The translations under genes were made by a program, and so were the position numbers. The notes under the pieces were generated by a model, which was not told the origin of the DNA, did not search any database, and was given only the letters and a program-made list of their open reading frames with translations. From an uncultured Candidatus Rokubacteria bacterium (GTDB taxonomy: Bacteria > Methylomirabilota > Methylomirabilia > Rokubacteriales > DASRDR01), in the NCBI GenBank assembly GCA_963812945.1, contig CAWEXD010000004.1, forward strand, positions 77,178 through 141,177: DNA of 64,000 nucleotides. The letters are read 5' to 3'. Positions 19,189 through 62,607 of this stretch are shown here, piece after piece. Positions within the stretch are counted from its first letter, which is position 1. Each line of letters begins with the position of its first letter.

Positions 19189-19278
19189 CTACGAGATCTT
19201 CCGCATGGGCTGCCCGCAGCAGGTGCCTGCGCTCTCGGACACGTGCCCACATTTCTCACAGCGGTACTGATTTGCCAT
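19189..19278 (-). CDS. 29-aa Cys-rich peptide (CxxC...CC, TRASH-like metal-binding motif)
   Basis: MANQYRCEKCGHVSESAGTCCGQPMRKIS; ATG preceded by strong SD GAGGAGGTG; last gene of a four-gene small-protein operon. Confidence 0.4.
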   Translation of the reverse strand: MANQYRCEKCGHVSESAGTCCGQPMRKIS

Positions 19279-19295
19279 GGCTTCCCACCTCCTCT

Positions 19296-19640
19296 TCAGT
19301 TGACCTGGATCGCTGTCACGACCTTCTGACCGCCCTTGTTCTCGACGCTCGCCTTCACGATCGCGCCGGCCTTCAGGGTGGCCAGATCGACATTGACCGA
19401 GGCCGGAATCATCAACCGGGTCCCGTCCTCGAGGAGAACCGTCCGGCCAGCGGGATCGATGCTCTTGATCTTCCCGCTGACCTCCCCTTGAGCCGGGCTC
19501 TGCGCTGGCGCTGGCGTCTTCGTCGTCGCTGGCTTCGACGCCGGCGCTGGGGGCGGCCCGGTCTGCGCCCCGACGAGCGAGACGAACACCAGAAGGAACA
19601 CGAGCCACATCCCGATCGCCGCCAAGAGGCTCTCCTTCAT
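19296..19640 (-). CDS. DUF1344-like secreted protein
   Basis: signal peptide, Pro/Ala-rich linker, then GKIKSIDPAGRTVLLEDGTRL...VTAIQV DUF1344-type beta domain. Confidence 0.6.
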   Translation of the reverse strand: MKESLLAAIGMWLVFLLVFVSLVGAQTGPPPAPASKPATTKTPAPAQSPAQGEVSGKIKSIDPAGRTVLLEDGTRLMIPASVNVDLATLKAGAIVKASVENKGGQKVVTAIQVN

Positions 19641-19654
19641 GGCATTCCCCGTGG

Positions 19655-19825
19655 TCAGACGGCTGGCGGCAATCGCCGGGTCCGGGCCATGTGGAACACC
19701 AGGAGCACCACACCCACCAGGAAGAGAACCCAGGCAATCTGCGTGGCCACCTGAGCCACTCCATAGAGCCCGAGAAGCCCGGCCACCAGGCCCACGATCA
19801 GAAACGTGAGCGCCATCGACAGCAT
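19655..19825 (-). CDS. DUF1328-family small membrane protein
   Basis: 56 aa, two TM segments (MLSMALTFLIVGLVAGLLGLYGVAQVATQIAWVLFLVGVVLL); SD GGAGGAGGG 8 nt upstream. Confidence 0.55.
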   Translation of the reverse strand: MLSMALTFLIVGLVAGLLGLYGVAQVATQIAWVLFLVGVVLLVFHMARTRRLPPAV

Positions 19826-19864
19826 CAGCTAACCCTCCTCCGCCAGTCCCGAGCTTCGGGGTGG

Positions 19865-19939
19865 CTACACCACGCCCATGAGCCACAGGATGACGATCAG
19901 ACTGAGCGGCACTCCCAGAAGCCACATGATCAGCGGCAT
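19865..19939 (-). CDS. 24-aa hydrophobic peptide (paralog of 34234..34311)
   Basis: MPLIMWLLGVPLSLIVILWLMGVV; SD AAGGGGGATG; first gene downstream of a sigma-54 promoter. Confidence 0.4.
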   Translation of the reverse strand: MPLIMWLLGVPLSLIVILWLMGVV

Positions 19940-19998
19940 TGCTACATCCCCCTTCTGCGCGTCGTCGCCGGCCGGCTGCCGGCCTTACCTGGAAGTAG

Positions 19999-20014
19999 GG
20001 CAAGACGCGTGCCG
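19999..20014 (-). promoter_or_regulatory. sigma-54 promoter (-24/-12) CGGCAC-N5-TTGCC
   Basis: GG-N10-GC spacing exact; predicted TSS about 60 nt upstream of the 19939 ATG. Confidence 0.55.
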
Positions 20015-20089
20015 GCGGCGGGGGCCTCGTAAATCGGGCTGCTGGCCCGGAATGGCTTGGATTCCTTGGGTCCGATTGGACCGAAGCTC

Positions 20090-20101
20090 GACACGGTGAC
20101 G
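20090..20101. promoter_or_regulatory. UAS half-element GACACGGTGACG (second copy GACACCGCGTCG at 20109..20120)
   Basis: identical to the right arm of 38169..38200; centre 83 nt upstream (minus orientation) of -24 GG of the promoter at 19999..20014. Confidence 0.4.
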
Positions 20102-20140
20102 CGAGGGCGACACCGCGTCGGGAGAAGTGGCTTCATCGCG

Positions 20141-20788
20141 TCAGGCCGCCGGTCGAACGGCCCGGTCTTCCTCGAGCCGTGTCTCGACGCCGGACCAGTC
20201 GATGTTTCGGAAGAACGCCTCGATGTACTGGTCGCGCTCGGTGGCCTTGTAGTCGCGCATGAACGCGTGCTCCCAGACGTCCATGACCAAGAGCGGCTTG
20301 AACCCGGCCGGCACGCCGTCCTGGTGGAGCGTGATCCAGTGATTCGTGAGGCGGTCGCTCATCGGGTCCTGGAAGAGGATCACCCAGCCGACTCCTCGCA
20401 TCTCACCGATGGCCTGGAAGTCGGTGCGCCACCGGTCCACCGACCCGAAAGATCCGGCCAGGGCGGCCGCCAGCCCCGAGCCCGACGGAGGCTTGGGATC
20501 GGCGGCGGCCCGAAGGTTGCCGAAGTAGTACTCGTGCAGGATCATCCCGTTGTACTCGAAACCCAGGCGGCGCGTCGGCTCGGCAAACTCGGGACTCTTC
20601 CCGGATGCCTTGCCCTTCGCGAGCATCTCGGCCAGCTCCTCGTTGAGGGCGTTGACCTGCTTGACGTACCCCGCGTACAGGGTGAGATGCTCCGCGACTT
20701 GAGCGTCCGAGATCCCGTCCAGGCCTTTGAGTTCGAATTCCTGCTTCCGGTAGGCCTTCGGAGTCTTGGGAGCGGTCTTGGCTGTCAT
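20141..20788 (-). CDS. sod: Fe/Mn superoxide dismutase
   Basis: ATG preceded by GGAAGGAGG; Fe/Mn-SOD signature region DVWEHAF.RDY and conserved His/Asp ligand positions. Confidence 0.9.
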   Translation of the reverse strand: MTAKTAPKTPKAYRKQEFELKGLDGISDAQVAEHLTLYAGYVKQVNALNEELAEMLAKGKASGKSPEFAEPTRRLGFEYNGMILHEYYFGNLRAAADPKPPSGSGLAAALAGSFGSVDRWRTDFQAIGEMRGVGWVILFQDPMSDRLTNHWITLHQDGVPAGFKPLLVMDVWEHAFMRDYKATERDQYIEAFFRNIDWSGVETRLEEDRAVRPAA

Positions 20789-21649: not shown

Positions 21650-21665
21650 AGCAATGACGATGCCA
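21650..21665 (-). promoter_or_regulatory. sigma-54 promoter TGGCAT-N5-TTGCT
   Basis: predicted TSS about 40 nt upstream of the PRC/BON gene ATG 21599. Confidence 0.6.
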
Positions 21666-21805
21666 GGGCCGGCGGGCGGGGACCCCGTGCGCGAAACGGC
21701 GCGCGAGAGGCGAGACGTGCGATCCGCAGAGGTGCCAGGCTGTCAGGGGCGCGACGTCGCGTCGCGAAGGCCGGCCCGATCGAGGCGCCCGATCGAGACG
21801 AAGGA

Positions 21806-22282
21806 TCAGGCCGAGGGCGCGATCTCCCGGGCTACTCGCTGCAGCAGCTCCATGAACGGCTCGATCCTGAGCGGCTTGACCAGGTGCGCGTCGAATCCCG
21901 TGTCGCCGGCCAGCGCGCGGTCCTCGACTTCGTGATATCCGGTCAGGGCGATCAGGAACATCGGGGCACCTGCCAATCCTTCCCGGATCCGGCGGGCGAC
22001 GGCGTAGCCGTCGAGGCCCGGCAACCCGATGTCGATCACCGCCACGGCCGGGCGGTGGGCCAGCGCGTGCGCGACACCCCCGTCGCCGTCGGCTGCCTCG
22101 CTGACCGCGCACCCCCACATCTCCAGCAGCATCCGGAGAGCCCCGCGCGCGTCGTTGTCATCCTCCACGACGAGGACACGTAGCCGCCCGGCAGCCGACT
22201 CCAAGGCGGCGGAAGCGACGGTGCGCGGATCCTGAGGTGTCAATTCGGACGTCACTCTACGGGGGGCTCCGGTGGAGGTCAA
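21806..22282 (-). CDS. single-domain response regulator (CheY-like receiver)
   Basis: RVLVVEDD...DIGLPGLDG...KP receiver motifs; start uncertain (TTG at 22282 or internal GTG). Confidence 0.6.
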   Translation of the reverse strand: MTSTGAPRRVTSELTPQDPRTVASAALESAAGRLRVLVVEDDNDARGALRMLLEMWGCAVSEAADGDGGVAHALAHRPAVAVIDIGLPGLDGYAVARRIREGLAGAPMFLIALTGYHEVEDRALAGDTGFDAHLVKPLRIEPFMELLQRVAREIAPSA

Positions 22283-22462
22283 GTCTGCGACGGTTCACCC
22301 CCCGCGTTCCCCCCACCCGCGCCAGGCTGACGCGGGGACGACACCGTGACGCGCCGGGCCCGGATGGCCGCCTCGGTTCGGCGGCGGGGCCTTCGCGTGT
22401 CCGCCAGGGTCCGCCGGGTCCACGTGAAGGTGCTCTCGGCCGGCGCCTGGTATGCCGGCCCC

Positions 22463-22478
22463 TGGTATGGAAGTTGCC
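22463..22478 (+). promoter_or_regulatory. sigma-54-like promoter TGGTAT-N5-TTGCC
   Basis: GG-N10-GC; predicted TSS about 22489, 42 nt before the TTG/GGAG start of treZ; three GGTATG repeats in 22448..22490. Confidence 0.4.
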
Positions 22479-30103: not shown

Positions 30104-30119
30104 TGCGAGTGTCGTGCCA
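30104..30119 (-). promoter_or_regulatory. sigma-54-like promoter TGGCACG-N4-TCGCA
   Basis: perfect -24 box, one mismatch in -12 (GC kept); 40 nt upstream of the 30051 ATG. Confidence 0.45.
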
Positions 30120-30185: not shown

Positions 30186-31871
30186 TCACGCGCCCGGCGA
30201 CGCCTGCGGCTGTCGCCGGCGCGACAGGGTGTCGCGCTCCGGCTCACGCGGCGGCGGGGCCGCCGACTGGTAGCGAGCGAACACGTCGTAGAGCTGGATC
30301 GGGTGATCGATCTCGGCCGGGAGGGGCGCGTCCGACCGTGCCAGGACGAACGTGCGAAGCTCCTCGGGTGACGGGCCCGCATGGCAGCCGACCTCGTCGA
30401 TGTAGGACACGTGCCCCTCGGGTGCGTCGATGCCATAGACGACGAGGTCGCCGGCGCTCGGCATGGCCATCAGCGCGGTGAGGTCCCGCGTGACGCTCAG
30501 GCGGTCCTCTCGCTCCGCGAAGGGACCGCCCTCGAAGTCGGCCAGGCGATGAGACTGGCCGCGCCAGAAGCAGACGGGGCCGGCCGCCGCGCGCGCGAGA
30601 ACGACGCCGACACCGGCGCTCTTCGAGAGGGCCGCGGCGAGCCCGGGCCATCGGGCCTCGATGGCCTCCAGGAGCACGGGCTCGGGGGTGTCCACAAAGT
30701 ACACGAACGCGTTCGGTCCGGCCGAGACCACCCGGATCCCGTCCCGCTCGAACGACTCGCGGTCATCGAGGTACGGGTCGAACCCGAGCTCGTGCCTGAC
30801 GGCGTCGTCCGGCGGCGGCCCTTCCGTCGGAGCCTCGGCGGAGGCCGCCGCCGGGCGCCCGGCCGGGGAGCTTCCCGGAAGCAGATCGAAGAATGCGCGC
30901 TCGAACCGCTGCCCTCCAGCCATCACGGAATAGGGGATGCTCGACGCTTGCCCGTGGTCCGCGAGGACGTAGAGATCGTAGCGGTACTCGGGCACGCGCC
31001 GGAGGACGCGCCCGATCTGACGGATCGACCGGTCGATCCCGCGCAAGGCCGCGATCGCCTGGCGAGTCCGGGGGCCGGCGGTGTGAGCGGTCTCGTCGTA
31101 GTCCAGGTAGTTGACGTAGATCGCCGGCACCCCGTCGTAAGCGTCGCGGGCAACGGCCAGCGTGAACCACTCGCGTGTCCAGACCGAGATGGCGATTCGC
31201 TTCTTGGCCACCTTCCACGTCAGAGCCCGCTGGCTCGGGTGCCGGGCCATGCGGGCCAGGGCCCGGATGAGCTCCCGGCCGGTGAGCACGACACCTCTCG
31301 CCGCGACCCACGCGACCACCACGAACGCCGAGAGCGTCCGGACCACCCCGGGCGTCCGCGGTCGCGTGAGCCGGGCGAAGCTGAAGAGGTCGTGGATGGC
31401 GCCCCCGGTGAACACGCATCCGTAGACGCTGCCATCCCGCAGGATGCCCGCCCGATCCGCGGCTTGCTCCGCCTCCACGAATGCAGCGTGTCCCGCACGA
31501 GGAAAGTGGATGTCCGTGCGTCGCCGCTTGTCGTGGTAGTGGAACCCGGGAATGTCCGGCTGGACCCCGTACATGGCGGCCATCTGGAAGGCCGGGGTGG
31601 ACGTGGGAATGCCTACCGTCATGGGCGTCAGCCGGTATCCGCCGCGATCCAGGAGGCGCCGGACATGCGGCATCTCCCCGGAGGAGAGCGCCTGCTCGAA
31701 GACGGTGCGCGAGAGCCCGTCGATCTGGACGATCAGGAGACGCCGCCGCCCGGCCGCGGGCGGGACGCCAAGCCGGAATCGCCGGACGATCCGGTCGATC
31801 GCCCGCTGGGCGTGGAGAAACAGGTCGGCGACGGTCATCGGCGCTGGCCCGGCGGGCTGTTCATCGCTCAC
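30186..31871 (-). CDS. alkaline phosphatase superfamily protein (type I phosphodiesterase/nucleotide pyrophosphatase-like)
   Basis: LIVQIDGLS metal-site lead motif and later Asp/His clusters typical of the AlkP core; GTG start 8 nt below the PBP stop. Confidence 0.6.
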   Translation of the reverse strand: MSDEQPAGPAPMTVADLFLHAQRAIDRIVRRFRLGVPPAAGRRRLLIVQIDGLSRTVFEQALSSGEMPHVRRLLDRGGYRLTPMTVGIPTSTPAFQMAAMYGVQPDIPGFHYHDKRRRTDIHFPRAGHAAFVEAEQAADRAGILRDGSVYGCVFTGGAIHDLFSFARLTRPRTPGVVRTLSAFVVVAWVAARGVVLTGRELIRALARMARHPSQRALTWKVAKKRIAISVWTREWFTLAVARDAYDGVPAIYVNYLDYDETAHTAGPRTRQAIAALRGIDRSIRQIGRVLRRVPEYRYDLYVLADHGQASSIPYSVMAGGQRFERAFFDLLPGSSPAGRPAAASAEAPTEGPPPDDAVRHELGFDPYLDDRESFERDGIRVVSAGPNAFVYFVDTPEPVLLEAIEARWPGLAAALSKSAGVGVVLARAAAGPVCFWRGQSHRLADFEGGPFAEREDRLSVTRDLTALMAMPSAGDLVVYGIDAPEGHVSYIDEVGCHAGPSPEELRTFVLARSDAPLPAEIDHPIQLYDVFARYQSAAPPPREPERDTLSRRRQPQASPGA

Positions 31872-34352: not shown

Positions 34353-34369
34353 GGCAATCTCTATGCCGG
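34353..34369 (-). promoter_or_regulatory. sigma-54 promoter CGGCAT-N5-TTGCC
   Basis: predicted TSS about 32 nt upstream of the 34311 ATG (tiny peptide, then PBP1A). Confidence 0.5.
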
Positions 34370-34446: not shown

Positions 34447-34472
34447 CACGGTGTCGCGAGCGCGACACCACG
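34447..34472. promoter_or_regulatory. palindromic UAS-like element CACGGTGTCGCGAGCGCGACACCACG
   Basis: contains GTGTC/GACAC dyad words; centre about 93 nt (82 plus one helical turn) from -24 GG of the promoter at 34353..34369. Confidence 0.35.
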
Positions 34473-34687
34473 ACGCTCGTGGCTCCTTGCGCTCCGGGCG
34501 CGCGCTCCGTGGACAGTTCCCGCGGGGAGGCTCCCGCGATCGAATCAAACCCACGGCGTGACGGCACGGCTTTCGCACCTCGCAGAGCGCGATGGTGGCT
34601 CTCCCAGGCGACGCCGAGAAGAAGGTTGACGCTCCCGAAAGGCGTCCGGCCTCCCCCGACCGCCACGGCCAATCACCGAACCAGCCG

Positions 34688-36451: not shown

Positions 36452-36620
36452 GCTCCAGGGCCCCCCGGAGCGCGCCGTCACCGTGTCGTGTCAACGACAC
36501 CGTGGCCAGGTCGTGTGCGGTCGAACACCGTGAAGACGTCGAGACTCGCCGGCGACGACTGTCGCTCATGTGCAGGCAGGACCGACCGTTTCCCTTCGAT
36601 TGCGATCCCGACGCCTCAGC

Positions 36621-36636
36621 GGGCAGCAGTGTTGCT
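36621..36636 (+). promoter_or_regulatory. sigma-54-like promoter GGGCAG-N5-TTGCT
   Basis: GG-N10-GC; about 60 nt upstream of the csbD ATG; weaker -24 box. Confidence 0.4.
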
Positions 36637-38089: not shown

Positions 38090-38105
38090 TGCAAGGCAGG
38101 TGCCC
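38090..38105 (-). promoter_or_regulatory. sigma-54 promoter GGGCAC-N5-TTGCA
   Basis: 70 nt upstream of ATG 38010; divergent from the promoter at 38266. Confidence 0.6.
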
Positions 38106-38168: not shown

Positions 38169-38200
38169 CGTCACCCTGTCGTGACTCCGACACGGTGACG
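38169..38200. promoter_or_regulatory. dyad UAS-like element CGTCACCCTGTC-N8-GACACGGTGACG (candidate activator site)
   Basis: 12-bp inverted repeat with 10/12 arm complementarity, preceded by palindrome GTGACGTCAC; centre is 81-82 nt from the -24 GG of both divergent sigma-54 promoters (38090..38105 and 38266..38281). Confidence 0.5.
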
Positions 38201-38265: not shown

Positions 38266-38281
38266 TGGCACACGACTTGCG
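38266..38281 (+). promoter_or_regulatory. sigma-54 promoter TGGCAC-N5-TTGCG
   Basis: predicted TSS about 38291, 33 nt before the DUF883 ATG with GGAGGAAGG SD. Confidence 0.6.
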
Positions 38282-43404: not shown

Positions 43405-43420
43405 CGGCACTCCCATTGCA
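43405..43420 (+). promoter_or_regulatory. sigma-54 promoter CGGCAC-N5-TTGCA
   Basis: predicted TSS about 43430, just ahead of the SD/ATG of the DUF748 gene. Confidence 0.55.
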
Positions 43421-45077: not shown

Positions 45078-45109
45078 CGTCACCCTGTCCGTCCGGCGAC
45101 ACCGTGTCG
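45078..45109. promoter_or_regulatory. dyad UAS-like element CGTCACCCTGTC-N8-GACACCGTGTCG
   Basis: same 12-8-12 architecture and left arm as 38169..38200; centre 83 nt upstream of -24 GG of the promoter at 45176. Confidence 0.5.
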
Positions 45110-45175: not shown

Positions 45176-45191
45176 CGGCACAGGCCTTGCT
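45176..45191 (+). promoter_or_regulatory. sigma-54 promoter CGGCAC-N5-TTGCT
   Basis: 55 nt upstream of ATG 45256 (Zn-ribbon/PPC/TRASH operon). Confidence 0.6.
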
Positions 45192-46426: not shown

Positions 46427-46846
46427 ATGCGGCACATCCGCGTCACGGCATTCACGCTCGCCGCGTTGGGCGTCCTGGCGACGGCGCCGGCGGCCCAGAC
46501 CCCTCCAGTCGCGGCCACGGCCGCCGTCCCCGCGGACAGGCTCATCGGCGTGTGGCGAGGGCACTGGAGGGCGGATGACGGGGCGCAGCGCGGGGCAGTC
46601 GAGATGATCTTCGGCCACGAGCCCGGGCGCCCCACCATCGTCGCGCAGATGACCTTCCTCGACGGGAGCCGCGCGGACACGGTACGCCGCGAGGGGCGGC
46701 TGACACGCCAGGGTGCCTTCTTCGACCTGGTCGGAGGCGGCACCATGGTGCTGACGCTCTCGTCGGGCCGCCTCATCGGAGAGTTCGCCGGCGGCCCGGA
46801 CGTACCGACCCGGTTCGGGTCAGTCGAGCTGACTCGGCGCGGCTGA
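46427..46846 (+). CDS. secreted hypothetical protein
   Basis: SD GGGAGG; signal peptide MRHIRVTAFTLAALGVLATAPAAQ. Confidence 0.45.
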   Translation: MRHIRVTAFTLAALGVLATAPAAQTPPVAATAAVPADRLIGVWRGHWRADDGAQRGAVEMIFGHEPGRPTIVAQMTFLDGSRADTVRREGRLTRQGAFFDLVGGGTMVLTLSSGRLIGEFAGGPDVPTRFGSVELTRRG

Positions 46847-47602
46847 TTCCCGCGCGGGGCCCGGGGCCTTCTCCGGGGCGGCCGGGAGGCTCAGCTCGAC
46901 GATCCGGATCGGCGCGTGGTCCGGATCGAGATCGCGGAGGAGCGGCAGGCACACGTTGTAGACGGGTACCCCGCCCCGGGTTCGGGCCTCCGGCCGGCCC
47001 CGGTGCGCGTGGCCGTGAAACACGAGGTCCACCTGATAGCGGTCCAGCGGCTCCTCCAGCCGGCTCGAGCCCAGGAAGGGATACAGCTCGGGAGGCTCCC
47101 CCTCGACCGTCGCCTGGATCGGAGAGTAGTGCAGGATCGCGACGCGGCGGGCGGTGTGCAGGCGGGCCAGGGCTCTTTCGAGCTTCAGGGCCTCGTCCAC
47201 CGTCTCCCGGACGAAGCGCTTCATGATGTCCTCGCCCCAGGGCTGGAGGGCCCGCTCCCCGAAGCCCCCGCCGAGGCCCTTCACGCCGCCGATCCCGAGA
47301 CCCGCCACCTCGCAGCCGTCCCCGTCCAGGATGACGACGCCGCCGTCCCGGAGGATCTGCACGACCTCCTCGTGCTGGCCCGACTCGTAGTCGTGGTTGC
47401 CGAGGACGCCGACGGCGGGAATGCGGAGCCCGGTGGCCACCTCCCGGGCCAGCACGCGCGCCTCGTCCGGATGCCCGTAGTCGGTCAGGTCTCCGCAGAG
47501 CAGCAGGACGTCGGCGCTGGCGCTAGCCGCCGCGAAGAGGGGCTGGAGCGCGCCCTGCGACGTCTTGGTGACGTGGAGGTCACCGACGGCGGCGATGCGC
47601 AC
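46820..47602 (-). CDS. calcineurin-like metallophosphoesterase
   Basis: GTG start M/VRIAAVGDLH, then GDLTD, GNHDY, GHAH motifs; start overlaps upstream gene by about 23 nt. Confidence 0.65.
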   Translation of the reverse strand: MRIAAVGDLHVTKTSQGALQPLFAAASASADVLLLCGDLTDYGHPDEARVLAREVATGLRIPAVGVLGNHDYESGQHEEVVQILRDGGVVILDGDGCEVAGLGIGGVKGLGGGFGERALQPWGEDIMKRFVRETVDEALKLERALARLHTARRVAILHYSPIQATVEGEPPELYPFLGSSRLEEPLDRYQVDLVFHGHAHRGRPEARTRGGVPVYNVCLPLLRDLDPDHAPIRIVELSLPAAPEKAPGPARESAAPSQLD

Positions 47603-48566
47603 GGGAACCGGGGCGACGCCCGTTCGATGGGATGTCGGGCGGCACGGGGTCGGGCGGCGCCGGCATCGGGCTGGACGAGATCGCCGCCGTCCAGTTCGCG
47701 ATGTCGGCGGCCGACATCTCGCCGCGGGGCGCCAGCCGACCGTCCGCATACCCGCGCGCGGAGACGTCGACCAGGTACTGCTGCCGGGACAGGAGCGTCC
47801 CATCACACACGCGGCCGGTCTCTCCCGGCCAGTCTCGCTCACGGTCGAGCCGGCGCATCAGATTGGCCATCACCGCGTCGGGGATGCACGCCCGCTCGCC
47901 CGGGTAGATGAAGCCGAAGAGGACGAGGTGGCTCAGGAGCACCCGCCAGTGCCGGCCGAAGCGTGCCAGCAGGCGACGCCAGTCCAGATCTCGCCCGCAC
48001 GCCTGGATGAGGTGGGCGACGTCGGCCCCGTCATAGCGCTCGCGTTCCATGATGAAGGCCTTGGACCAGATCATTTCCTCCGGCGGGCACAGCCACACCG
48101 GGATGCCGAGAACCGAGCCCGGGGTGGCGTGAGTGAACCAGAGGTCGTCGACGGCGGCGACACCGTTTCCGGCGCTGAAGATGAGATCGATGTAGCGATC
48201 CCCGACGTACGCCTTGGCCAGCCAGTGTGGAAAGGTGAGCTCGCCTGCGAAGCCCGCCGCGTCCAGCACGACGAGCGCGTACTCACAGTCCTCCTTCCGG
48301 AGAAAGACGTCCAGATCCTTCGTGTCCCGGAAGATGCCGGTATGCGGCGCGAGAGCGTGAGCGCCGCCGATCAGAAACTCCACGCCGGCGCCGTGAAGCG
48401 CCTCGAGCGCGGTGCGGTAGACGCGTCGCGCCTCGGCATCAAGCTCTTCGCCGACGCCCACAGCCGGGGCCGGAGCCGGCGGCACAGCCGGAGTCAGGTG
48501 GTCACAGGACCCCGGCTCGCCGTTCCGGACGAGGTTCGCCGCTCTCACGGCGGAGTTCCGTTGCAA
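47580..48566 (-). CDS. nucleotidyltransferase-fold protein (Pol-beta superfamily minimal NTase)
   Basis: hG[GS]x9-13DhD motif: LIGGAHALAPHTGIFRDTKDLDVFL; true start probably internal (about 48461 GTG); N-terminal 35 aa doubtful. Confidence 0.55.
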   Translation of the reverse strand: MQRNSAVRAANLVRNGEPGSCDHLTPAVPPAPAPAVGVGEELDAEARRVYRTALEALHGAGVEFLIGGAHALAPHTGIFRDTKDLDVFLRKEDCEYALVVLDAAGFAGELTFPHWLAKAYVGDRYIDLIFSAGNGVAAVDDLWFTHATPGSVLGIPVWLCPPEEMIWSKAFIMERERYDGADVAHLIQACGRDLDWRRLLARFGRHWRVLLSHLVLFGFIYPGERACIPDAVMANLMRRLDRERDWPGETGRVCDGTLLSRQQYLVDVSARGYADGRLAPRGEMSAADIANWTAAISSSPMPAPPDPVPPDIPSNGRRPGSRAHRRRR

Positions 48567-48593
48567 GAGGAGCGCCTATCAGCCCGCTCGAGA

Positions 48594-49025
48594 CTAGTCG
48601 GCCGATCGCGAGACGATCCCGTCGATGGCGTCGCGGAGCTGTCCCAGCCTGAACGGCTTCTCCAGATAGCTCGCGGCGCCCAGCCGGAGCGCGCTGGTCG
48701 CCACCTGACGGCCGCCGAACGCTGTCACGAGCACGACAGGGACTTTCGGGAACTCGCGGCGCAGGATCGGCAAGAGCTCGATGCCCGTGAGTCCCGGCAT
48801 CTCCTTGTCCAGGACGATGAGGTCGAACGGTGTCCCGCGCAGCGTCTCCACCACGTGGGTGCCCCGGTCCAGCTCCGTCACCTCATGCCCGTCGAATTCG
48901 AGCGTTCGCCGGAGGAGCGCTCGCATCTCGGCGTCGTCGTCGACGATCAGCACCCGGATGGGGCGCGGACGGCCTTCGACGTCACCCGCGGTCACGGCCG
49001 TACGGGCAAGAGACACGACACTCAT
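48594..49025 (-). CDS. single-domain response regulator (receiver)
   Basis: VLIVDDD...DLIVLDKEMPGLTG...KP; immediately downstream of the NtrC-type gene. Confidence 0.75.
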   Translation of the reverse strand: MSVVSLARTAVTAGDVEGRPRPIRVLIVDDDAEMRALLRRTLEFDGHEVTELDRGTHVVETLRGTPFDLIVLDKEMPGLTGIELLPILRREFPKVPVVLVTAFGGRQVATSALRLGAASYLEKPFRLGQLRDAIDGIVSRSAD

Positions 49026-49055
49026 GCCCTCGAATACAGCAAGGACCGTGCCAGC

Positions 49056-50420
49056 TCATGGCTGCTGGTCCGTCAGCCCGGGCCCCACCCGAAGCATGTT
49101 GGCCTGCATCCGCTGCAGCGTCCGCACGCTGATTCCGAGGATGCGGGCCGCGGCTCGCTTGTCGCCGCGGACCTCGTCAAGAATCCGACGGATGTACTGG
49201 CTCTCCACCTCGGCCAGGGACGGGCGCACGCCCAGCTCGCTACTGGACCCCGGGGTGAACTCGATGCGGAGGTCGTCCCGAGTAATGACGCGGCCCTTCG
49301 TCAGCGTGGCCGCCCGCTCGACGACGTTCTCGAGCTCGCGGACGTTACCCGGCCAGCTGTGCTCGTGGAGCCACTTGACGGCCTCCTCGTCGAAGCCGTC
49401 GATCTCCTTCCCCATCCCGGCGGCCGCGCGCTTCAGGAAGTGCTCGGCCAGGAGCGGGATGTCCTCCGGCCGCTCCCGGAGGCTGGGGATCCGGATCGGG
49501 AGGACGGCCAGCCGATAGTAGAGATCCTCGCGGAACTTCCCCTGACGCACGAGGGCGGGCAGGTCCCGGTTGGTGGCGCTGATGAGACGGAGGTCCACCT
49601 TGATCTCCTCGTTGCCTCCGACGGGCCGCACGACGCGGTCCTGGAGGGCACGAAGGAGCTTCACCTGGAGGGACTGGGGCATCTCGGCGATCTCGTCGAG
49701 CAAGAGCGTCCCGCCCTCGGCTTCCACGAAGAGGCCCCGCCGCTTCCGATCGGCGCCCGTGAAGGCTCCCCTCTCGTGTCCGAACAGCTCGGACTCCAGG
49801 AGCGTCTCGGGAATGGCCGCACAGTTGACGGCGACGAACGCCCCCTCGCGGCGGCCGCTGTGCCAGTGGATGGCCCGCGAGACCAGCTCCTTGCCCGACC
49901 CGCTGTCCCCCAAGAGCAGCACCGCCGCGTCGGTGTCCGCCACCACGCGGATCTGCTCGAACACGGACTGCATCGCCTTCGAGCGGCCGATGATGTTGTC
50001 GAAGCTGTAGCGGCGCTCGACCTCGGCCCGGAGCCGGCGGTTCTCCTCACGCAGGCGCTGGTCCTCGACGGCCCGCTTGACGACCAGGGACAGCTCCGGA
50101 AGCTTGAAGGGCTTCATCAGGTAGTCGTACGCACCCTGGCGCATCGCATCGATGGCGCTCTCGAGGCTCCCGAACGCCGTCATGAGGATGACGCGGGCGC
50201 GCGGCTGGACCTTCTGCGACTCGCGCAGCACGGCCAGGCCGTCCACGGGCTCCATGACGAGGTCGGTGAGGACGACCGAGTACTCCTCGCGTCCCAGCGC
50301 CGTCTGGGCGTCCTCCCCGCCGGTGACCGTCGTCACCGACCAGCCCTCTGTCTCGAGATGGCGCCGGAGCAGCGCCACCATGTCCGCATCGTTGTCCACG
50401 ACGAGAATTCGGGATTTCAT
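49056..50420 (-). CDS. sigma-54-dependent transcriptional activator, NtrC family (REC plus AAA+ plus Fis-type HTH)
   Basis: receiver D-box, Walker A GDSGSGKE, GAFTGA sigma-54 contact loop (ERGAFTGA), C-terminal HTH; ATG overlaps HK stop. Confidence 0.9.
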   Translation of the reverse strand: MKSRILVVDNDADMVALLRRHLETEGWSVTTVTGGEDAQTALGREEYSVVLTDLVMEPVDGLAVLRESQKVQPRARVILMTAFGSLESAIDAMRQGAYDYLMKPFKLPELSLVVKRAVEDQRLREENRRLRAEVERRYSFDNIIGRSKAMQSVFEQIRVVADTDAAVLLLGDSGSGKELVSRAIHWHSGRREGAFVAVNCAAIPETLLESELFGHERGAFTGADRKRRGLFVEAEGGTLLLDEIAEMPQSLQVKLLRALQDRVVRPVGGNEEIKVDLRLISATNRDLPALVRQGKFREDLYYRLAVLPIRIPSLRERPEDIPLLAEHFLKRAAAGMGKEIDGFDEEAVKWLHEHSWPGNVRELENVVERAATLTKGRVITRDDLRIEFTPGSSSELGVRPSLAEVESQYIRRILDEVRGDKRAAARILGISVRTLQRMQANMLRVGPGLTDQQP

Positions 50421-51898
50421 GGCTGCTCCCTCCCTGCTTCCGAGCTGGCTTCGGGCAGCCAGACGGTGAAGGTGGTGCCCTCGCCGGGCATGCTCGCCAC
50501 CTGGATCTCGCTGCCGTTGGACCGGACAAGGTCGCGACAGATCGCGAGGCCGAGACCGGATCCCTCGCGAGCGGGCTTGGTGCTGAAGAAGGGGTCGAAG
50601 ATCTTGGGAAGGACATCCGCGGGGATCCCGGATCCGCTGTCTCGAACCTCGATGGCGACCCCCGGCCGTCCGTCGTCCAGCCGGTGCGCCCCGGCGACCT
50701 CGACCCGGCCGCCGGCCGGCGTCGCCTCGATGGCGTTCGTGAGCAGGTTGATCAGCACCTGCTGGAGATGGCCGGGGTCGACGAGCACCTCCGGAAGGTC
50801 GCGCGGGAGCCTGACCGCCAGGGTGACGCCGCGGGTCCGGGCGAAATGCTGGAGCAACGGTCGGAGGCCCTCGGTGACCGACCCGGGCGCGGTGGCCGTC
50901 CGCTCGGGCTCGCGCTGGCGGAAGGGATCCAGGGCCGCGCGGATCATCTTGGATATCCGGTCGATCTGGGCGATGACGACGTCGAGGTCCTCCCGGAGCG
51001 GTGAGTCCTTGGGCACGGCGCGCAGCATCAGCTCGGCGCGGCCGGCAATGATGTTGAGCGGCGTGCCCACCTCGTGCGCGATGCTCGAGCAGAGCTTGCC
51101 GGCGATCGCGAGGCTTTCCGTCTGCCGCAGGCGGCGCATCAGCTCGAGCGACCGGTCCGACTCGGCCTCCACCCGCTGGCGGGCTTCCTCCAGCCGTTCG
51201 GTCATCCGGTTGAAAGCCGTCGCGACCTGACCCAGCTCGTCGCGGCTCCGGACCGGCACCGGCGCCGGGGCCGCGCCGGACCCGACACGCTCGATCCCCT
51301 GCATCAGGTCGGCGACCGGCCGGAAGACGAGGCGCTGGAGGGCCATCCAGATGATCAGGCCCAGGAGCACGACGAGCACGCTGCCCCGCAGCGCGATCTT
51401 GTAGTTCTCGCTGAGCAGGGCCGCCTCCAGGCGGCCCGCGACGAAGGCGACTTCGAGCACTCCGTCGTCGGAGCCGGACGACGAACGGACCGGGAGAAGC
51501 ACGCTGTGCAGCCGGATGCCCGCGCTCTGGTGCTCGACGACGGCCGGCTGGCCCGTCTCCCGGACCCCCCGATGCCGATCGAGGGACACTCCAGGATCGC
51601 CCGCGAGGAGGTTCGCGTCGACCCGCCGCGCCAGGTTCCGGTCCAGCAATCGGATGCGAACGATCTCGGTCTGCTTGACGACCAGGTCGTCGGCCAGCCG
51701 CTTGACGTCGGCCAGCGTGCCGCCCCGGAGCGCGTTCTCCACCGCAAGCCGGATGGCCGTGCTCGTGACGTTGACGCGCAACTCGAACTCCGCCCGTCGC
51801 TGTGCGCGCTCGTCTCTCATGAGGACGTACGTAAACACCGCGACGACCAGGACCATCGGCACGAGCAGGAGTAGGACTAGGCGAAGTCGCAGTCCCAC
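50417..51898 (-). CDS. sensor histidine kinase (2 TM, HAMP, HisKA, HATPase)
   Basis: H-box SIAHEVGTPLN, N-box LLTNAIEA, G-boxes DSGSGI, GSGLGLAI. Confidence 0.85.
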   Translation of the reverse strand: MGLRLRLVLLLLVPMVLVVAVFTYVLMRDERAQRRAEFELRVNVTSTAIRLAVENALRGGTLADVKRLADDLVVKQTEIVRIRLLDRNLARRVDANLLAGDPGVSLDRHRGVRETGQPAVVEHQSAGIRLHSVLLPVRSSSGSDDGVLEVAFVAGRLEAALLSENYKIALRGSVLVVLLGLIIWMALQRLVFRPVADLMQGIERVGSGAAPAPVPVRSRDELGQVATAFNRMTERLEEARQRVEAESDRSLELMRRLRQTESLAIAGKLCSSIAHEVGTPLNIIAGRAELMLRAVPKDSPLREDLDVVIAQIDRISKMIRAALDPFRQREPERTATAPGSVTEGLRPLLQHFARTRGVTLAVRLPRDLPEVLVDPGHLQQVLINLLTNAIEATPAGGRVEVAGAHRLDDGRPGVAIEVRDSGSGIPADVLPKIFDPFFSTKPAREGSGLGLAICRDLVRSNGSEIQVASMPGEGTTFTVWLPEASSEAGREQP

Positions 51899-52049
51899 GG
51901 GGTCCTCAGTCTAGCACGCGTCCGACGCGCGACAGCCCGCCCCCCGAACGACAGGATGGCGTTCGTCCTCGAGCGGCCGTGTTCGCGGCGGCGTGCATTT
52001 CGCGCGCACTTGTCGCGTCACACCAGGACGCCGCGCGCGCGGCCCCGCG

Positions 52050-52065
52050 TGGCATGTGCCTTGCT
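52050..52065 (+). promoter_or_regulatory. sigma-54 promoter TGGCAT-N5-TTGCT
   Basis: about 125 nt upstream of the repeat-lipoprotein ATG 52192. Confidence 0.55.
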
Positions 52066-52863: not shown

Positions 52864-52895
52864 GTCACGTTGTCGTCGCCGCGACATGATGTCGC
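52864..52895. promoter_or_regulatory. dyad UAS-like element CGTCACGTTGTC-N8-GACATGATGTCG
   Basis: 12-8-12 architecture related to 38169 and 45078; centre about 114 nt (82 plus three turns) upstream of the candidate promoter at 52992. Confidence 0.3.
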
Positions 52896-52991: not shown

Positions 52992-53007
52992 TGGAATCGC
53001 CGTTGCA
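52992..53007 (+). promoter_or_regulatory. sigma-54-like promoter candidate TGGAAT-N5-TTGCA
   Basis: perfect -12 box, degenerate -24 box; about 200 nt upstream of the glgX ATG; dyad UAS-like element 114 nt further upstream. Confidence 0.3.
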
Positions 53008-59612: not shown

Positions 59613-59624
59613 CGACACCGTGTC
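59613..59624. promoter_or_regulatory. UAS element GACACCGTGTCG (palindromic)
   Basis: identical to the right arm of 45078..45109; centre 81 nt upstream of -24 GG of the promoter at 59698. Confidence 0.4.
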
Positions 59625-59697
59625 GATCCGACGACGCGATGGCGTCCGGCCCCTGCGCGTTCCGCGGACATCGCGCCTCCTCTAGCAGCGAGTGGCG

Positions 59698-59713
59698 TGG
59701 CACACGCCTTGCT
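59698..59713 (+). promoter_or_regulatory. sigma-54 promoter TGGCAC-N5-TTGCT
   Basis: consensus match; predicted TSS about 59724. Confidence 0.6.
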
Positions 59714-59971: not shown

Positions 59972-59980
59972 GAGGCGACC

Positions 59981-60664
59981 ATGCGGAGCGCACGAATGCA
60001 CGGCCTCGTCCTCGCCCTGGCCGGGGTCCTCGTCTCCGGTTGCGCCGGGCTGCCCCTGCCCGACGGATCGGGCTCACCGCAGGAGCAGGGCTCCGGGCCG
60101 CGCCTCGCCACCGAGCCCGTCAGCCCCCAGGACGCGGCGCGGCTCCGCCGGATCGTCGAGCCGCTGGCGCGGGCCGCCGACAAGCCCCCGCAGCGCGTCT
60201 CGGTCGGCATCCTCTCCGACAAGAGCATCAATGCCGCCAACGCCGGCGGGGGCGAGTTCTACGTGACGCGGGGCCTCCTGAATAGCGCGACGGACGAGCA
60301 GCTCCTGGCGATCATGGCCCACGAGTTCGCGCACAACGACCTCGGCCACGTGGCGAAGGCGCAGGCCGTCAATGCCGGCGTCGGAATCGGCGCGGCCATC
60401 CTGGAGCAGGTCATCCCCCAGGCGGCGATCATCACGCCCATCGCGGGGACCCTGATCACTCGCGCGCACAGCCGGTCGGAGGAGCTGGAGGCCGACCGCC
60501 ACGCCGTGACGCTGCTGAAGCGCGTGGGATCGTCGAAGCGGGCGCTGGAGAACACGCTGGCCTGGCTGGCGCGCACCTCTGGCGGCGGCGAGGGCGGCGG
60601 CTGGTTCGCCACGCACCCCGGGACCAACGACCGCATCCAGGCTCTGCGGCAGCTGCCCTCCTGA
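59981..60664 (+). CDS. M48-family zinc metallopeptidase lipoprotein
   Basis: SD AGGAGG; lipobox LVSGCAG; HEFAHNDLGH (HExxH) plus downstream E. Confidence 0.75.
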   Translation: MRSARMHGLVLALAGVLVSGCAGLPLPDGSGSPQEQGSGPRLATEPVSPQDAARLRRIVEPLARAADKPPQRVSVGILSDKSINAANAGGGEFYVTRGLLNSATDEQLLAIMAHEFAHNDLGHVAKAQAVNAGVGIGAAILEQVIPQAAIITPIAGTLITRAHSRSEELEADRHAVTLLKRVGSSKRALENTLAWLARTSGGGEGGGWFATHPGTNDRIQALRQLPS

Positions 60665-60697
60665 CGGTTCGCCCACCAGGCGTCCCCCGACCGGTCG

Positions 60698-61228
60698 ATG
60701 GCAGCGCCTGAGAGGGGGAGGGCCGGCAACACGGCCGGCCCTCCCGCGCCCGGCGGGATCTCGCCGGCCCTCCGCGAGTGGATCGCCCAGCTCTTCACGC
60801 GGGTCGAGGACGTCGTCTACATCGGCCTGGGCGCGCTGCTGGCGGCGAGCGCCGTGGTGCTCCTGCTCGACGGCGTCCTGGAGTTCGGGCGCAGTCTCCT
60901 GGCCGCCACGATGCCAGGACGGGTCATCGATCTGCTCGACCGGATCCTGCTGATCCTGATGATCGTGGAGGTGCTGTACACCGTTCAGGTCTCGTTCCGG
61001 GAGCACACGCTCGCGCCCGAGCCGTTCCTGATCGTCGGGCTGATCGCCGTCACCCGCCGGATCCTCGTCCTGACGGCGGAGCTCGCCGAGCTGGCCCAGG
61101 CCGGCGGACCGGGCTTCCTCCACGCGATCCTGGAGCTCGGCCTCCTGACGCTGATGGTGCTGGTGCTCGTGGTTGCCCTGGTCCTCTTGCGGAGGCGTTC
61201 GAGCCAGGCGGTCGCCGAGCGGGCGTGA
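60698..61228 (+). CDS. PsiE-like phosphate-starvation-inducible membrane protein
   Basis: four TM helices with PsiE-type MIVEVLYTV core; start uncertain. Confidence 0.5.
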   Translation: MAAPERGRAGNTAGPPAPGGISPALREWIAQLFTRVEDVVYIGLGALLAASAVVLLLDGVLEFGRSLLAATMPGRVIDLLDRILLILMIVEVLYTVQVSFREHTLAPEPFLIVGLIAVTRRILVLTAELAELAQAGGPGFLHAILELGLLTLMVLVLVVALVLLRRRSSQAVAERA

Positions 61229-61277
61229 AGAGTCCAGCGAGGATAGCAACCCCGGAAGGAGCCCTGCCAGCCTGACG

Positions 61278-61565
61278 TCAGCGCGACGCGGTGTCGTGAC
61301 GGGACGCGGCCGGGGACGAGGTACTCGAGGGCGGATCCTGCGTGGACGGCGGGCTGGGCGGTTTCCGGCGCCGGGCGCTACGGCGCGCGGCGATGACCGT
61401 CGCGTACCCGGCGATCAGCGCCAGGAAGACGACCGGAATCAGCCCCGGCCACAGATGTCGATCGCGCTCCGCGAGTTCCGCCGGGTTCGGGTCTCCTGTA
61501 ACTGGCTGGGCGTACAGTGCCGTTGCCGCGAGGAGCAAACAATACGCCCCAAGGGCCAGGGCCAC
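61278..61565 (-). CDS. possible small two-TM membrane protein
   Basis: two hydrophobic helices within ORF 61278..61769; GTG start guessed; GC3 atypically low; weak call. Confidence 0.2.
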   Translation of the reverse strand: MALALGAYCLLLAATALYAQPVTGDPNPAELAERDRHLWPGLIPVVFLALIAGYATVIAARRSARRRKPPSPPSTQDPPSSTSSPAASRHDTASR

Positions 61566-61739
61566 CAGCGCGGCGGCGTGGCGGACGGTCCGAAGATCAC
61601 GGAGCGGTGAGCGTGGGGTGCCCGGTCGCGGGGGCACGCGCCCCGCGCGCCAAGCGCGGCTCGCTCCGAACCGGCGACGCCCCCTGATCGTTCGCTCCAC
61701 GATCTCAGTCGGTGCAAGGCACATACCCGGACGTGCGGG

Positions 61740-61755
61740 TGGCACCTTGCTTGCT
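61740..61755 (+). promoter_or_regulatory. sigma-54 promoter TGGCAC-N5-TTGCT
   Basis: consensus; TSS about 61766, then AAGGAGG and the ATG at 61783. Confidence 0.6.
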
Positions 61756-61782
61756 CCGTTTCTCGCCAAGGAGGACTACGAC

Positions 61783-62607
61783 ATGCAGGCCGTCGTCGGC
61801 GTCGTCCGGCAGTACGCTCACGCGGAGCTGATGGTCGCGGCGTTGCGGGAGATCGGAATCCCCGACCGCCGCATCAGCGTCCTGTCTCCCGGATCGTCCG
61901 AGTCGGCCGTGCGAGCCGTTCCGACCACGGACGCCGAGCAGCCGGGCATCGGCGGCACCATCGGCAGCGTCGTCGGCGGCGCGGCGGGCACCGCTGGAGG
62001 GCTGGCCGTGGCATCGCTCGCGCTCCCCGGCGTGGGGCCCGTGATCGCAGCCGGTGCAATCGCGCTGGGGCTCGTCGGCGCCGTGGCGGGCGGCGCGCTC
62101 GGGGGCCAGCTCGACGACGTCCTCTCCAAGGGACTCCCCACGGACGAGCTCTACGTCTACCGTCACGCGCTCCGAACGGGGCGCACCGTCGTGATCGCGA
62201 TGGTGGACGACGACGCCGAGGCGGAGCGAGTCCGGGGGCTCCTCACGAGCCGCGGGGCGGAGAGCGTCGACGCCGCCCGGGAGGACTGGTGGATCGGTCT
62301 GCGCGACGCCGAGGAAGCCGAGTACACGCGCCAAGGCGGCGACTTCGGGAAGGACGAGGCGGTCTACCGCTTGGGGTTCGACGCGGCGTTCCGCCAGTCC
62401 GGCCCGGTGCCGCCCTTCGACGAGGCCGGCCCGCGCCTCCGCGACCGACACGGGCCGCTCGTCGAGGCCCTGGCGTTTCGCGCGGGCTACGAGCGCGGGC
62501 GGGGCCGCAGGGCGGCGTTCGAGAAGGAGGGTGGCAGCCGTCCCCCGACGGATGGCCCGACGCTGATCGCGGCGCTCCTCGCCTTCCTCGTCGGCGGAGC
62601 GGGGTAG
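61783..62607 (+). CDS. YflT-like general stress protein (GsiB/17M family) with Gly-rich membrane-like insert
   Basis: AAGGAGG SD 8 nt upstream; N-terminus VVGVVRQYAHAELMVAALREIGIPDRRISVL and second half-domain YVYRHALRTGRTVVIAMVDDDAEAERVRGLL match the YflT repeats; sigma-54 promoter 28 nt upstream. Confidence 0.55.
   Translation: MQAVVGVVRQYAHAELMVAALREIGIPDRRISVLSPGSSESAVRAVPTTDAEQPGIGGTIGSVVGGAAGTAGGLAVASLALPGVGPVIAAGAIALGLVGAVAGGALGGQLDDVLSKGLPTDELYVYRHALRTGRTVVIAMVDDDAEAERVRGLLTSRGAESVDAAREDWWIGLRDAEEAEYTRQGGDFGKDEAVYRLGFDAAFRQSGPVPPFDEAGPRLRDRHGPLVEALAFRAGYERGRGRRAAFEKEGGSRPPTDGPTLIAALLAFLVGGAG

Follow-up and report, generated by a model that had tools for sequence, protein, structure and literature searches.

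A predicted sigma-54-dependent stress-protection island with a shared enhancer-like dyad in an uncultured Rokubacteria bacterium

Introduction

The window analysed here is a stretch of 64,000 nucleotides (nt) from an uncultured Candidatus Rokubacteria bacterium (GenBank assembly GCA_963812945.1, contig CAWEXD010000004.1, positions 77,178 to 141,177 of the forward strand). Its part from 19.2 to 62.6 kb is probably a stress-protection island, in which about 14-16 transcription units would be read by sigma-54 polymerase via one two-component activator. About 16 sigma-54-type promoters lie within these 43 kb, with GG and GC exactly 10 nt apart in an extended consensus, and a dyad of 26 bp, CACCGTGTCG-N6-CGACACGGTG (CA-N3-TGTCG-N6-CGACA-N3-TG), is present upstream of most of them (about ten). 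This is unusual both for the gene families, which elsewhere belong to the regulons of sigmaS, sigmaB or EcfG, and for the density of the promoters.

General stress responses are understood for three designs, namely sigmaS, sigmaB and EcfG/PhyR, and for most phyla we know of no master stress regulator. Regulons of these three types hold CsbD, BON/OsmY-like, DUF883 (ElaB/YqjD-like), YflT-like, DUF1328 and PRC-barrel proteins as well as trehalose synthesis, ferritin-type iron storage, superoxide dismutase (SOD) and HSP20. Rokubacteria are uncultured and abundant in soil. As no transcription starts from a sigma-54 promoter without its activator, a stress regulon of this design would stay tightly off in the absence of a signal, unlike one that depends on sigma-factor competition. 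In the searchable full-text literature no description of such a sigma-54 stress regulon of Rokubacteria or Methylomirabilota was found.

Results

Enrichment and placement of sigma-54-type promoters

Promoters were scored by a graded -24/-12 score, which requires the GG and the GC and counts the matches at seven further positions of the consensus TGGCAC-N5-TTGCW. In the window, with a G+C content of 70.8%, YGGCAY-N5-TTGC occurs 10 times against 0.38 expected, and at most three occurrences were found among 100 dinucleotide shuffles. Eleven sites reach a graded score of at least 6, compared to 0.56 in Markov simulations (about 20-fold), and five show the perfect score, compared to 0.02. A shuffle control had been proposed by the first-pass annotation of this DNA, and its outcome is favourable, like that of the other proposed computational checks that were run: the full consensus stands far above the shuffles. 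The bare GG-N10-GC is as frequent as in the shuffles (1714 versus 1663 +/- 39). Thus, the signal resides in the full consensus and not in the spacing rule alone. The same annotation had listed at least 12 units of small stress-type genes with near-consensus -24/-12 elements, all of which were located. Three units are additional to this list, i.e., a REC-only regulator (promoter at 49038-49053), an AI-2E transporter (34562-34577) and, through operon structure, the encapsulin/EncFtn genes.

According to a gene map based on codon bias, 14% of the window is non-coding (coding fraction 0.857). All 11 strong sites are non-coding, span 20.0-61.8 kb and are each oriented to a start codon. No strong site was found in the first 1-19 kb of the window, which encode a TRAP transporter, a Kef-type exchanger, a glycosyltransferase and acyl-CoA enzymes. 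The start codons preceded by a Shine-Dalgarno (SD) sequence were said to lie 30-125 nt downstream, and the measured distance from the -12 C is 22-128 nt; this does not apply to the M48 unit, where the M48 start lies at 269 nt and a conserved open reading frame (ORF) opens 14 nt after the -12 C. The gene families were mostly named correctly, as Pfam confirmed DUF1328, DUF1344, PRC+BON, CsbD, BON, DUF3309, holin-X, the DksA-type Zn finger, DUF748, PCC, WXXGXW, M48, PsiE, TreZ, GlgX and TreY, whereas the matches for DUF3618 and YflT are weak.

A promoter candidate in front of the PLD gene (40808-40823, first G at 40809) is probably not genuine and was left uncounted, because only 4 nt separate its end from the ATG and it lacks conservation, and a candidate on the minus strand at 61713-61728 was rejected, as there is no convincing gene downstream. 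Reading the boxes as promoters of an extracytoplasmic function (ECF)-type sigma factor was ruled out, since the gap between them is 5 nt instead of 16-17. An Rfam scan of the window gave no family, which rules out known riboswitches in the long leaders, and no repeat family was found that accounts for the promoter or dyad matches.

A phased dyad upstream of the promoters

The dyad is located 70-130 nt upstream of the -24 GG. With up to 4 mismatches in 20 positions, eight dyads are present in the window against 0.23 in simulations, and all eight are intergenic. The spacing of the half-sites is narrow: five copies of TGTCG-Nx-CGACA have x=6, whereas the other values of x between 2 and 11 together account for a single match (x=5, within a gene). 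When the strong promoters of the window and of seven orthologous loci are taken together, 24 of 48 have the core with at most one mismatch between -20 and -170, compared to 2.4% of random 150-nt segments under the same criterion. The distances between dyad centre and GG cluster near 70, 81, 91.5, 102 and 114, which corresponds to a helical phasing with a period of 10.75-11 (Rayleigh p ~0.003, 14 non-redundant pairs). Two dyads (34447 and 38172) are each placed between a divergent promoter pair. The shared enhancer-like element that had been suspected earlier is thus borne out by the counts, except that DUF748 and the YflT-like gene have no canonical dyad.

For a negative control, the scan was applied to 1.25 Mb of sequence surrounding paralogues from the NtrC family (at most 48% identity, from many phyla and including two Methylomirabilota loci). 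These loci came from a contig search with the activator of the window as query, which returned paralogues only and no orthologues. They contain no pair of dyad and promoter and a single dyad match.

The kinase-activator pair

Next to these promoters, a sensor histidine kinase (50417..51898, minus strand) and an NtrC-type bacterial enhancer-binding protein (49056..50420, minus strand) are encoded, and the stop codon of the kinase overlaps the start of the activator. From Pfam and its translation, the kinase consists of a transmembrane (TM) segment, a periplasmic domain of ~150 amino acids (aa), a second TM segment, HAMP, HisKA and HATPase. The activator contains REC (PF00072), an AAA+ sigma-54 interaction domain (Sigma54_activat, PF00158, 9.5e-71) and HTH_8 (PF02954), and its translation shows an intact GAFTGA loop (ERGAFTGA) and a Walker A motif (GDSGSGKE). 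The first-pass annotation had suggested a count of enhancer-binding protein genes in the genome; within the island there is one sigma-54 activator with intact GAFTGA, and Pfam scans found no second protein with a DNA-binding domain in the window. The activator scores under the NCBIfam cut-off of every named equivalog (AtoC, NtrC, ZraR, GlrR, NifA and PspF), e.g., 461.8 bits versus 714 for AtoC, 435.5 versus 558.6 for NtrC and 367.7 versus 528.9 for NifA. Its closest solved structure is Aquifex NtrC1 (4l4u).

A degenerate dyad (51933..51958) lies directly upstream of the kinase-activator operon, between the kinase start and the promoter of a lipoprotein gene, and its right half CGACAGGATG is kept in the orthologous loci L081 and L082. 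The activator is followed by the perfect-score promoter TGGCACGGTCCTTGCT (49038..49053, minus strand, first G at 49052), which has no canonical dyad upstream and would drive the REC-only regulator (48594-49016), NTP_transf_5 and a metallophosphoesterase (46820..49016, minus strand). This promoter, located right after the activator stop, is kept in L081, L082 and L094. A REC-only gene with its own sigma-54 promoter always adjoins the kinase and activator genes (48594-49053 on the minus strand of the window, L081 11367, L082 11369, L099, L123 and L096). In the close clade it is found after the activator stop, and in a clade of 65-68% identity after the kinase, there with a canonical dyad. The REC-only regulator looks like a conserved feedback element on the phosphorelay, acting as phosphate sink or connector.

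Conservation in orthologous loci

More than 100 activator orthologues with 70-97% identity were obtained in a protein search; NCBI labels them as Methylomirabilota or Candidatus Rokubacteria. Eight loci around activator orthologues of 94, 91, 79, 75, 74, 73 and 72% identity were fetched. The kinase-activator pair is kept in all of them, in neighbourhoods of the same theme with CsbD, BON, DUF3309, PLD, DUF748, encapsulin/EncFtn, M48, HSP20 and a hibernation factor; those of L087 and L088 add treZ/treY/glgX, an Mrp antiporter, TrkA_C and MscS. The clearest osmotic-stress neighbourhood among the loci examined is that of L087 (GCA_016193045.1, 944-21329), a metagenome-assembled genome (MAG) of Rokubacteria, where the pair is flanked on one side by a complete Mrp Na+/H+ antiporter operon and on the other by treZ, treY, TrkA_C, glgX, a REC-only gene and MscS.

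Conservation of the boxes in orthologous intergenic regions had been put forward earlier as a point of comparison, and both boxes, the dyad and the gene families recur there, while the DNA between the motifs has diverged. The alignment of the divergent intergenic region at 38 kb from three genomes (A1) shows four conserved blocks only, which are the two promoters, the dyad and the SD sequence. In the orthologues, promoter and dyad are almost never found upstream of genes internal to the operons (BON, DUF3309, DksA, Metallophos, MBL). The orthologous sites are statistically non-independent and the upstream regions were partly selected by the pattern; L081 and L082 were not selected in this way and are concordant.

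Distribution in metagenomes

Metagenomes were scanned with the exact pattern CA-N3-TGTCG-N6-CGACA-N3-TG, N55-85, GGCAY-N5-TTGC, which allows distances of 68-98. The scan gave 89 dyad and promoter pairs on 85 contigs, nearly all with 62-75% G+C; these counts are not independent, because the contigs were chosen by the pattern itself and many carry orthologous copies. The distances in 74 dereplicated pairs are confined to 70-72, 80-87 and 89-98, while 73-79 and 88 stay empty, and none of 20000 uniform nulls was as strongly periodic. The first downstream genes belong mostly to families of the window, with about ten 24-aa peptides, about ten Zn-ribbon proteins, six DUF1328 and six REC-only proteins, in addition to DUF883-like, PRC+BON, M48 and PCC. 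OtsA, GlgB, MscS, OmpA and MlaD are new targets with respect to the window. Homologues of the activator were detected by tblastn on 21 of the 85 pattern-selected contigs, with more than 60% identity (65-93%) on eight, and in the 65-68% clade a dyad and promoter just after the kinase gene would drive a REC-only gene.

A few matches of low G+C (55-61%) are nif promoters of other organisms, namely L147 3175-3288 (NifW-like) and L111 1918-2027 (NifB-like). As the pattern also matches nif promoters, the dyad core is formally of the NifA type TGT-N10-ACA. In L135 (10919-11029, 58% G+C, on a 58-kb contig) and L138, dyad and promoter are located upstream of a gene for a small glycine-zipper protein. 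These two may come from Methylomirabilis-like members, and the system would then be wider than Rokubacteria.

Predicted transcription units of the island

At the left end of the island, CGGCACGCGTCTTGCC (19999..20014, minus strand, first G at 20013) would drive the genes for a 24-aa peptide (19865-19939), DUF1328, DUF1344 and a 29-aa Cys peptide (to 19189). The corresponding dyad (20092..20117) has 4 of 20 mismatches, with its centre ~91 nt from the GG, and promoter and dyad are kept in 10/10 upstream regions of orthologues of the 24-aa peptide, all from loci picked by the pattern. The adjacent promoter TGGCATCGTCATTGCT (21650..21665, minus strand, first G at 21664) belongs to PRC+BON (20901-21599) and probably also to the SOD-like gene (20141-20788). 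It is preceded at ~84 nt from its GG by a degenerate dyad (21736..21761) with two mismatches in the core, while the PRC+BON orthologue in L146 has a perfect core at 92 nt.

Between the second REC-only gene (21806-22204) and treZ lies a dyad with 5 mismatches (22323..22348), followed by the weak promoter TGGTATGGAAGTTGCC (22463..22478, plus strand, first G at 22464). The unit behind it comprises treZ, the GDE debranching enzyme, DUF4383 and a DUF4118 kinase (22531-28133) and possibly REC-MBL (28297-29589). Both treZ and glgX-treY had been named as weaker candidates, and the weaker sites are indeed present at 22464 and 52993. The last two genes form a second signalling pair (26841-29589, plus strand) of a DUF4118-HisKA kinase and a REC protein with metallo-beta-lactamase (MBL) fold. 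This pair appears to be co-transcribed with, or to follow just after, treZ-GDE-DUF4383, and co-transcription suggests a cascade within the regulon.

The secreted 128-aa protein (29665-30051) would be expressed from TGGCACGACACTCGCA (30104..30119, minus strand, first G at 30118); in its orthologue in L129 TGGCACGCCGCTCGCAC is kept. About 100 nt from the GG is a dyad with the exact TGTCG-N6-CGACA core (30206..30231), which falls within the 3' end of the phosphodiesterase gene. That gene (30186-31871) is the last of a unit with a 25-aa peptide (34234-34311) and PBP1A (31861-34068) behind CGGCATAGAGATTGCC (34353..34368, minus strand, first G at 34367). The dyad at 34447..34472 (4 mismatches, exact core) is common to this promoter and the divergent, weaker CGGCACGGCTTTCGCA (34562..34577, plus strand, first G at 34563), which would drive the AI-2E-family transporter (34688-36451).

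For csbD, BON and DUF3309 (36707-37540) the promoter is GGGCAGCAGTGTTGCT (36621..36636, plus strand, first G at 36622), with a dyad of one mismatch (36479..36504) ~130 nt from the GG, and its GGCAG variant is kept in L081, L094, L098 and L153. A second divergent pair shares the dyad at 38172..38197, which has one mismatch and lies 80 and 82 nt from the promoters. Of these, GGGCACCTGCCTTGCA (38090..38105, minus strand, first G at 38104) would drive the hydrophilic 128-aa protein (37624-38010), where promoter and dyad are kept in 4/4 orthologous regions, and TGGCACACGACTTGCG (38266..38281, plus strand, first G at 38267) would drive DUF883-like, holin-X, DUF3618-like, the DksA-type Zn finger and probably VTT/DedA (38324-40705), with promoter and dyad kept in 10/10 upstream regions of DUF883-like orthologues.

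DUF748 (43441-45069) is preceded by CGGCACTCCCATTGCA (43405..43420, plus strand, first G at 43406). A degenerate element at 43346-43371 is the sole dyad-like sequence at this promoter, which was not found in front of the orthologue in L083. Further downstream, CGGCACAGGCCTTGCT (45176..45191, plus strand, first G at 45177) heads the unit of a 78-aa Zn-ribbon protein, PCC, a Cys-rich 76-aa protein and proteins of 56 and 139 aa (45256-46846). Its dyad (45081..45106, 3 mismatches) is at ~83 nt from the GG, and both elements are kept in 10/10 upstream regions of Zn-ribbon orthologues.

On the other side of the kinase gene, the perfect-score promoter TGGCATGTGCCTTGCT (52050..52065, plus strand, first G at 52051) belongs to a lipoprotein with WXXGXW repeats (52192-52512) and is kept in L081 and L082. 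The unit of glgX, treY, EncFtn and encapsulin (53214-59591) would be read from the weaker TGGAATCGCCGTTGCA (52992..53007, plus strand, first G at 52993), with an exact-core dyad (52866..52891) ~114 nt from the GG; the TGGAAY variant and the dyad are likewise found in L081 and L082. The genes for encapsulated ferritin and encapsulin follow treY (58393-59591, plus strand). In L084 (16581-17990) a separate dyad belongs to this pair, and its divergent sigma-54 promoters also serve an HSP20 gene.

The unit of a basic 81-aa ORF (59726-59971), the M48 lipoprotein peptidase (59981-60664) and PsiE (60698-61228) is located behind the perfect-score promoter TGGCACACGCCTTGCT (59698..59713, plus strand, first G at 59699), which is kept in L081, L082 and L132. 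Its dyad (59616..59641, 2 mismatches, ~70 nt from the GG) is kept in L081. The last promoter, TGGCACCTTGCTTGCT (61740..61755, plus strand, first G at 61741, perfect score), would drive the YflT-like glycine-zipper protein (61783-62607) and has no dyad within 170 nt. In the region 61228-61783 it stands back to back with the rejected minus-strand element, with no dyad in between and a possible two-TM ORF on the minus strand amid these elements.

Small open reading frames and other observations

The sequence between promoter and M48 gene (59713-59980 in the window, 660-949 in L081, also in L132) holds the conserved basic ORF. Its length is 81 aa in the window and 72 aa in L081, and tblastn gave a match of 80 aa in L132. 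In all of these and in L082, a start codon (ATG or GTG) is located 12-14 nt downstream of the -12 C, at the predicted sigma-54 start site, and for this reason the mRNA of the M48 unit may be leaderless. The differences from L081 are in-frame indels, and G+C at third codon positions (GC3) is 0.81-0.84. Best conserved are the C-terminal 23 codons (MILATDHGPRVAWSAARPVFQKR), which have their own SD sequence.

The hydrophobic peptides of 24 and 25 aa (MPLIMWLLGVPLSLIVILWLMGVV) at 19865-19939 and 34234-34311 (both minus strand) are paralogous, and each heads a sigma-54 operon. The 24-aa peptide is 100% identical on the unrelated soil metagenome contigs L156 and L160. Neither Pfam nor NCBIfam holds a family for these peptides, the hydrophilic 128-aa protein or the M48 leader ORF. 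The 29-aa Cys peptide (19192-19278, minus strand) is similar to the N-terminal domain of desulfoferrodoxin, which is of the desulforedoxin type; the match (E 1.2e-4) falls just short of the Pfam cut-off. This peptide may be a mini metal-binding protein. Outside the island, two 307-aa paralogues (4742-5665 and 9131-10054, both minus strand) are encoded 3.5 kb apart beside a GT2 glycosyltransferase. Their N-termini are nearly identical (MLWAITSYFNP.GYRRRLENFREFRRRLA.), and neither has a Pfam match.

Discussion

Proposed mechanism and output

The predicted mechanism corresponds to canonical activation of sigma-54 promoters by a two-component system, and the single phased enhancer is NifA-like. 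The membrane kinase would sense a signal by its periplasmic domain and phosphorylate the REC domain of the NtrC-type activator, a dimer of which would then bind the dyad on one face of the helix. The activator would form an AAA+ ring, whose GAFTGA loops would remodel closed sigma-54 complexes at TGGCAC-N5-TTGC. The output would comprise about 45 genes. These are small membrane and periplasmic protectants (24-aa peptides, DUF1328, CsbD, BON, DUF3309, DUF883-like, PRC+BON, YflT-like), trehalose from glycogen (TreZ, GlgX, TreY), encapsulated ferritin, the SOD-like protein, envelope enzymes (PBP1A, M48 peptidase), the DksA-type factor and the REC-only regulator. Osmotic or desiccation stress is the likely signal, as judged from the conserved linkage to trehalose synthesis, MscS, Mrp and OtsA, and ferritin, the SOD-like gene, HSP20, DksA, PsiE and the hibernation factor indicate a broader dormancy programme.

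Several observations weigh against this interpretation. The canonical dyad is missing at four promoters (REC, YflT-like, DUF748 and PLD), and therefore other activators may act there. One dyad (61268..61293, 4 mismatches) is an orphan, which lies 460 nt upstream of the 61740 promoter and has no promoter at working distance, and the treZ promoter, itself a weak site, is not conserved in the sole orthologous region examined, L093. A six-frame search for the RpoN box gave no match in the window or in the Methylomirabilota loci examined, only one in a Gemmata locus; the GAFTGA activator suggests that rpoN is present in the genome. The neighbouring activator is the putative binder of the dyad, and proximity and co-occurrence are the whole basis of this link. 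In addition, the dependence among the metagenome counts has to be considered, and the label 'general stress' is based on the names of the families, and for several of these no function is known.

Alternative explanations

That the matches are a chance, compositional or repeat artefact of a genome with 71% G+C has next to no probability left. The bare GG-N10-GC would be in line with it, being as frequent as in shuffles, but the full consensus is enriched from 20-fold to more than 200-fold, the sites are solely intergenic, correctly oriented, paired with a phased dyad and conserved amid diverging flanks, and neither Rfam nor a repeat family explains them. This explanation is already refuted by the controls. 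Hardly more probable is a NifA-like regulon with the dyads as NifA-type upstream activating sequences (UAS), although the core is formally TGT-N10-ACA and the metagenome pattern also caught nif promoters in organisms of lower G+C. Neither nif genes nor a NifA with GAF domain are found in the window or in the orthologous loci L081-L088, the activator has a REC domain and scores 368 bits against a NifA cut-off of 529, and the conserved dyad extends beyond this motif to CA and TG at +/-13.

Alternatively, the promoters could be real and the dyad could serve a different regulator from elsewhere in the genome, or the island could be shared by more than one enhancer-binding protein, so that the local pair controls only few units. 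We consider this unlikely. It would suit the four promoters without dyad, the many NtrC-family paralogues in Methylomirabilota and, within the island, the DUF4118 kinase with REC-MBL as a second two-component system as well as the two REC-only proteins. However, among the proteins of the window a DNA-binding domain was found in the activator alone, the 1.25 Mb around paralogous activators lack a dyad and promoter pair, activator homologues on the pattern-selected contigs are far above the expectation for a single-copy gene, and a dyad is found at the edge of the kinase and activator genes in both activator clades. A somewhat better, still doubtful alternative is an envelope or osmotic-shock module like Psp, ZraSR or Cpx instead of a general stress response. 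Here, the kinase would respond to disturbances of the periplasm or membrane, and the products would repair the exterior of the cell. Membrane proteins, periplasmic proteins and lipoproteins make up most of the output (tiny TM peptides, DUF1328, BON, PRC, PBP1A, M48, WXXGXW, DUF748), OmpA, MlaD and MscS are among the metagenome targets, the kinase has a periplasmic sensor domain, and the idea fits a proposed role of sigma-54 in controlling the bacterial exterior (PMC3162934). It accounts less well for cytoplasmic general and dormancy functions, i.e., trehalose synthesis, encapsulated ferritin, the SOD-like protein, CsbD, the DksA-type protein and PsiE, and for the HSP20 and ribosome hibernation factor in units of relatives.

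Implications

The stress-protection island under one two-component activator is thus the reading we prefer for this DNA. A tentative extension, which we hold to be possible rather than probable, is that general stress and dormancy in Methylomirabilota/Rokubacteria are run by sigma-54 with one kinase-activator pair and one enhancer, instead of a stress sigma factor of the sigma-70 family. If true, this would be a fourth, mechanistically distinct wiring of the bacterial general stress response. The cis-code of -24/-12 element and phased dyad, and likely the trans-factors, can be read from sequence, so the regulon could be enumerated in any MAG and directly from metagenomes. It could be followed in soil metatranscriptomes, e.g., during drying and rewetting, and could be rebuilt in E. 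coli, which has sigma-54. In addition, families of unknown function, such as the 24-aa peptides, DUF1328, DUF3309, DUF748 and the Zn-ribbon/PCC operon, would be assigned a physiological context.

Comparison with known systems

In NtrB-NtrC, Aquifex NtrC1, ZraSR and AtoSC, as in the island, a kinase is encoded with a REC-AAA+(GAFTGA)-HTH_8 activator. Two-component sigma-54 systems are also alike in that the activator acts from upstream dyads on -24/-12 promoters, binding being a prediction in our case. AtoC, NtrC and ZraR are the best NCBIfam models for the activator, all of them under cut-off. The dyad differs from those of NtrC, ZraSR and AtoSC, and the targets are stress protectants and trehalose synthesis instead of nitrogen, zinc or acetoacetate metabolism. 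The NifA UAS is similar as a single TGT-N10-ACA dyad that works from one face of the helix, ~80-130 bp in front of a sigma-54 promoter; however, the activator described here has REC and not GAF, nif genes are absent from the window and from L081-L088, and the dyad extends over 26 bp with conserved CG as inner and CA/TG as outer bases.

In gene content the island resembles the regulons of sigmaS in Enterobacteria, sigmaB in Bacillus and EcfG-NepR-PhyR in Alphaproteobacteria. Those are governed by factors of the sigma-70 family under proteolysis or partner switching, whereas the promoters of the island are of the -24/-12 type, for which ATP-dependent activation by an enhancer-binding protein is predicted. 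Precedents for a sigma-54 stress response via a dedicated activator are PspF/psp, the sigma-54 promoter of E. coli ibpB, HsfA/HsfB-lonD of Myxococcus and Rrp2-RpoN-RpoS of Borrelia. These modules cover one or few operons, or rpoS only, whereas in the island one type of dyad is found at at least ten units within 43 kb, and further families are added in metagenomes.

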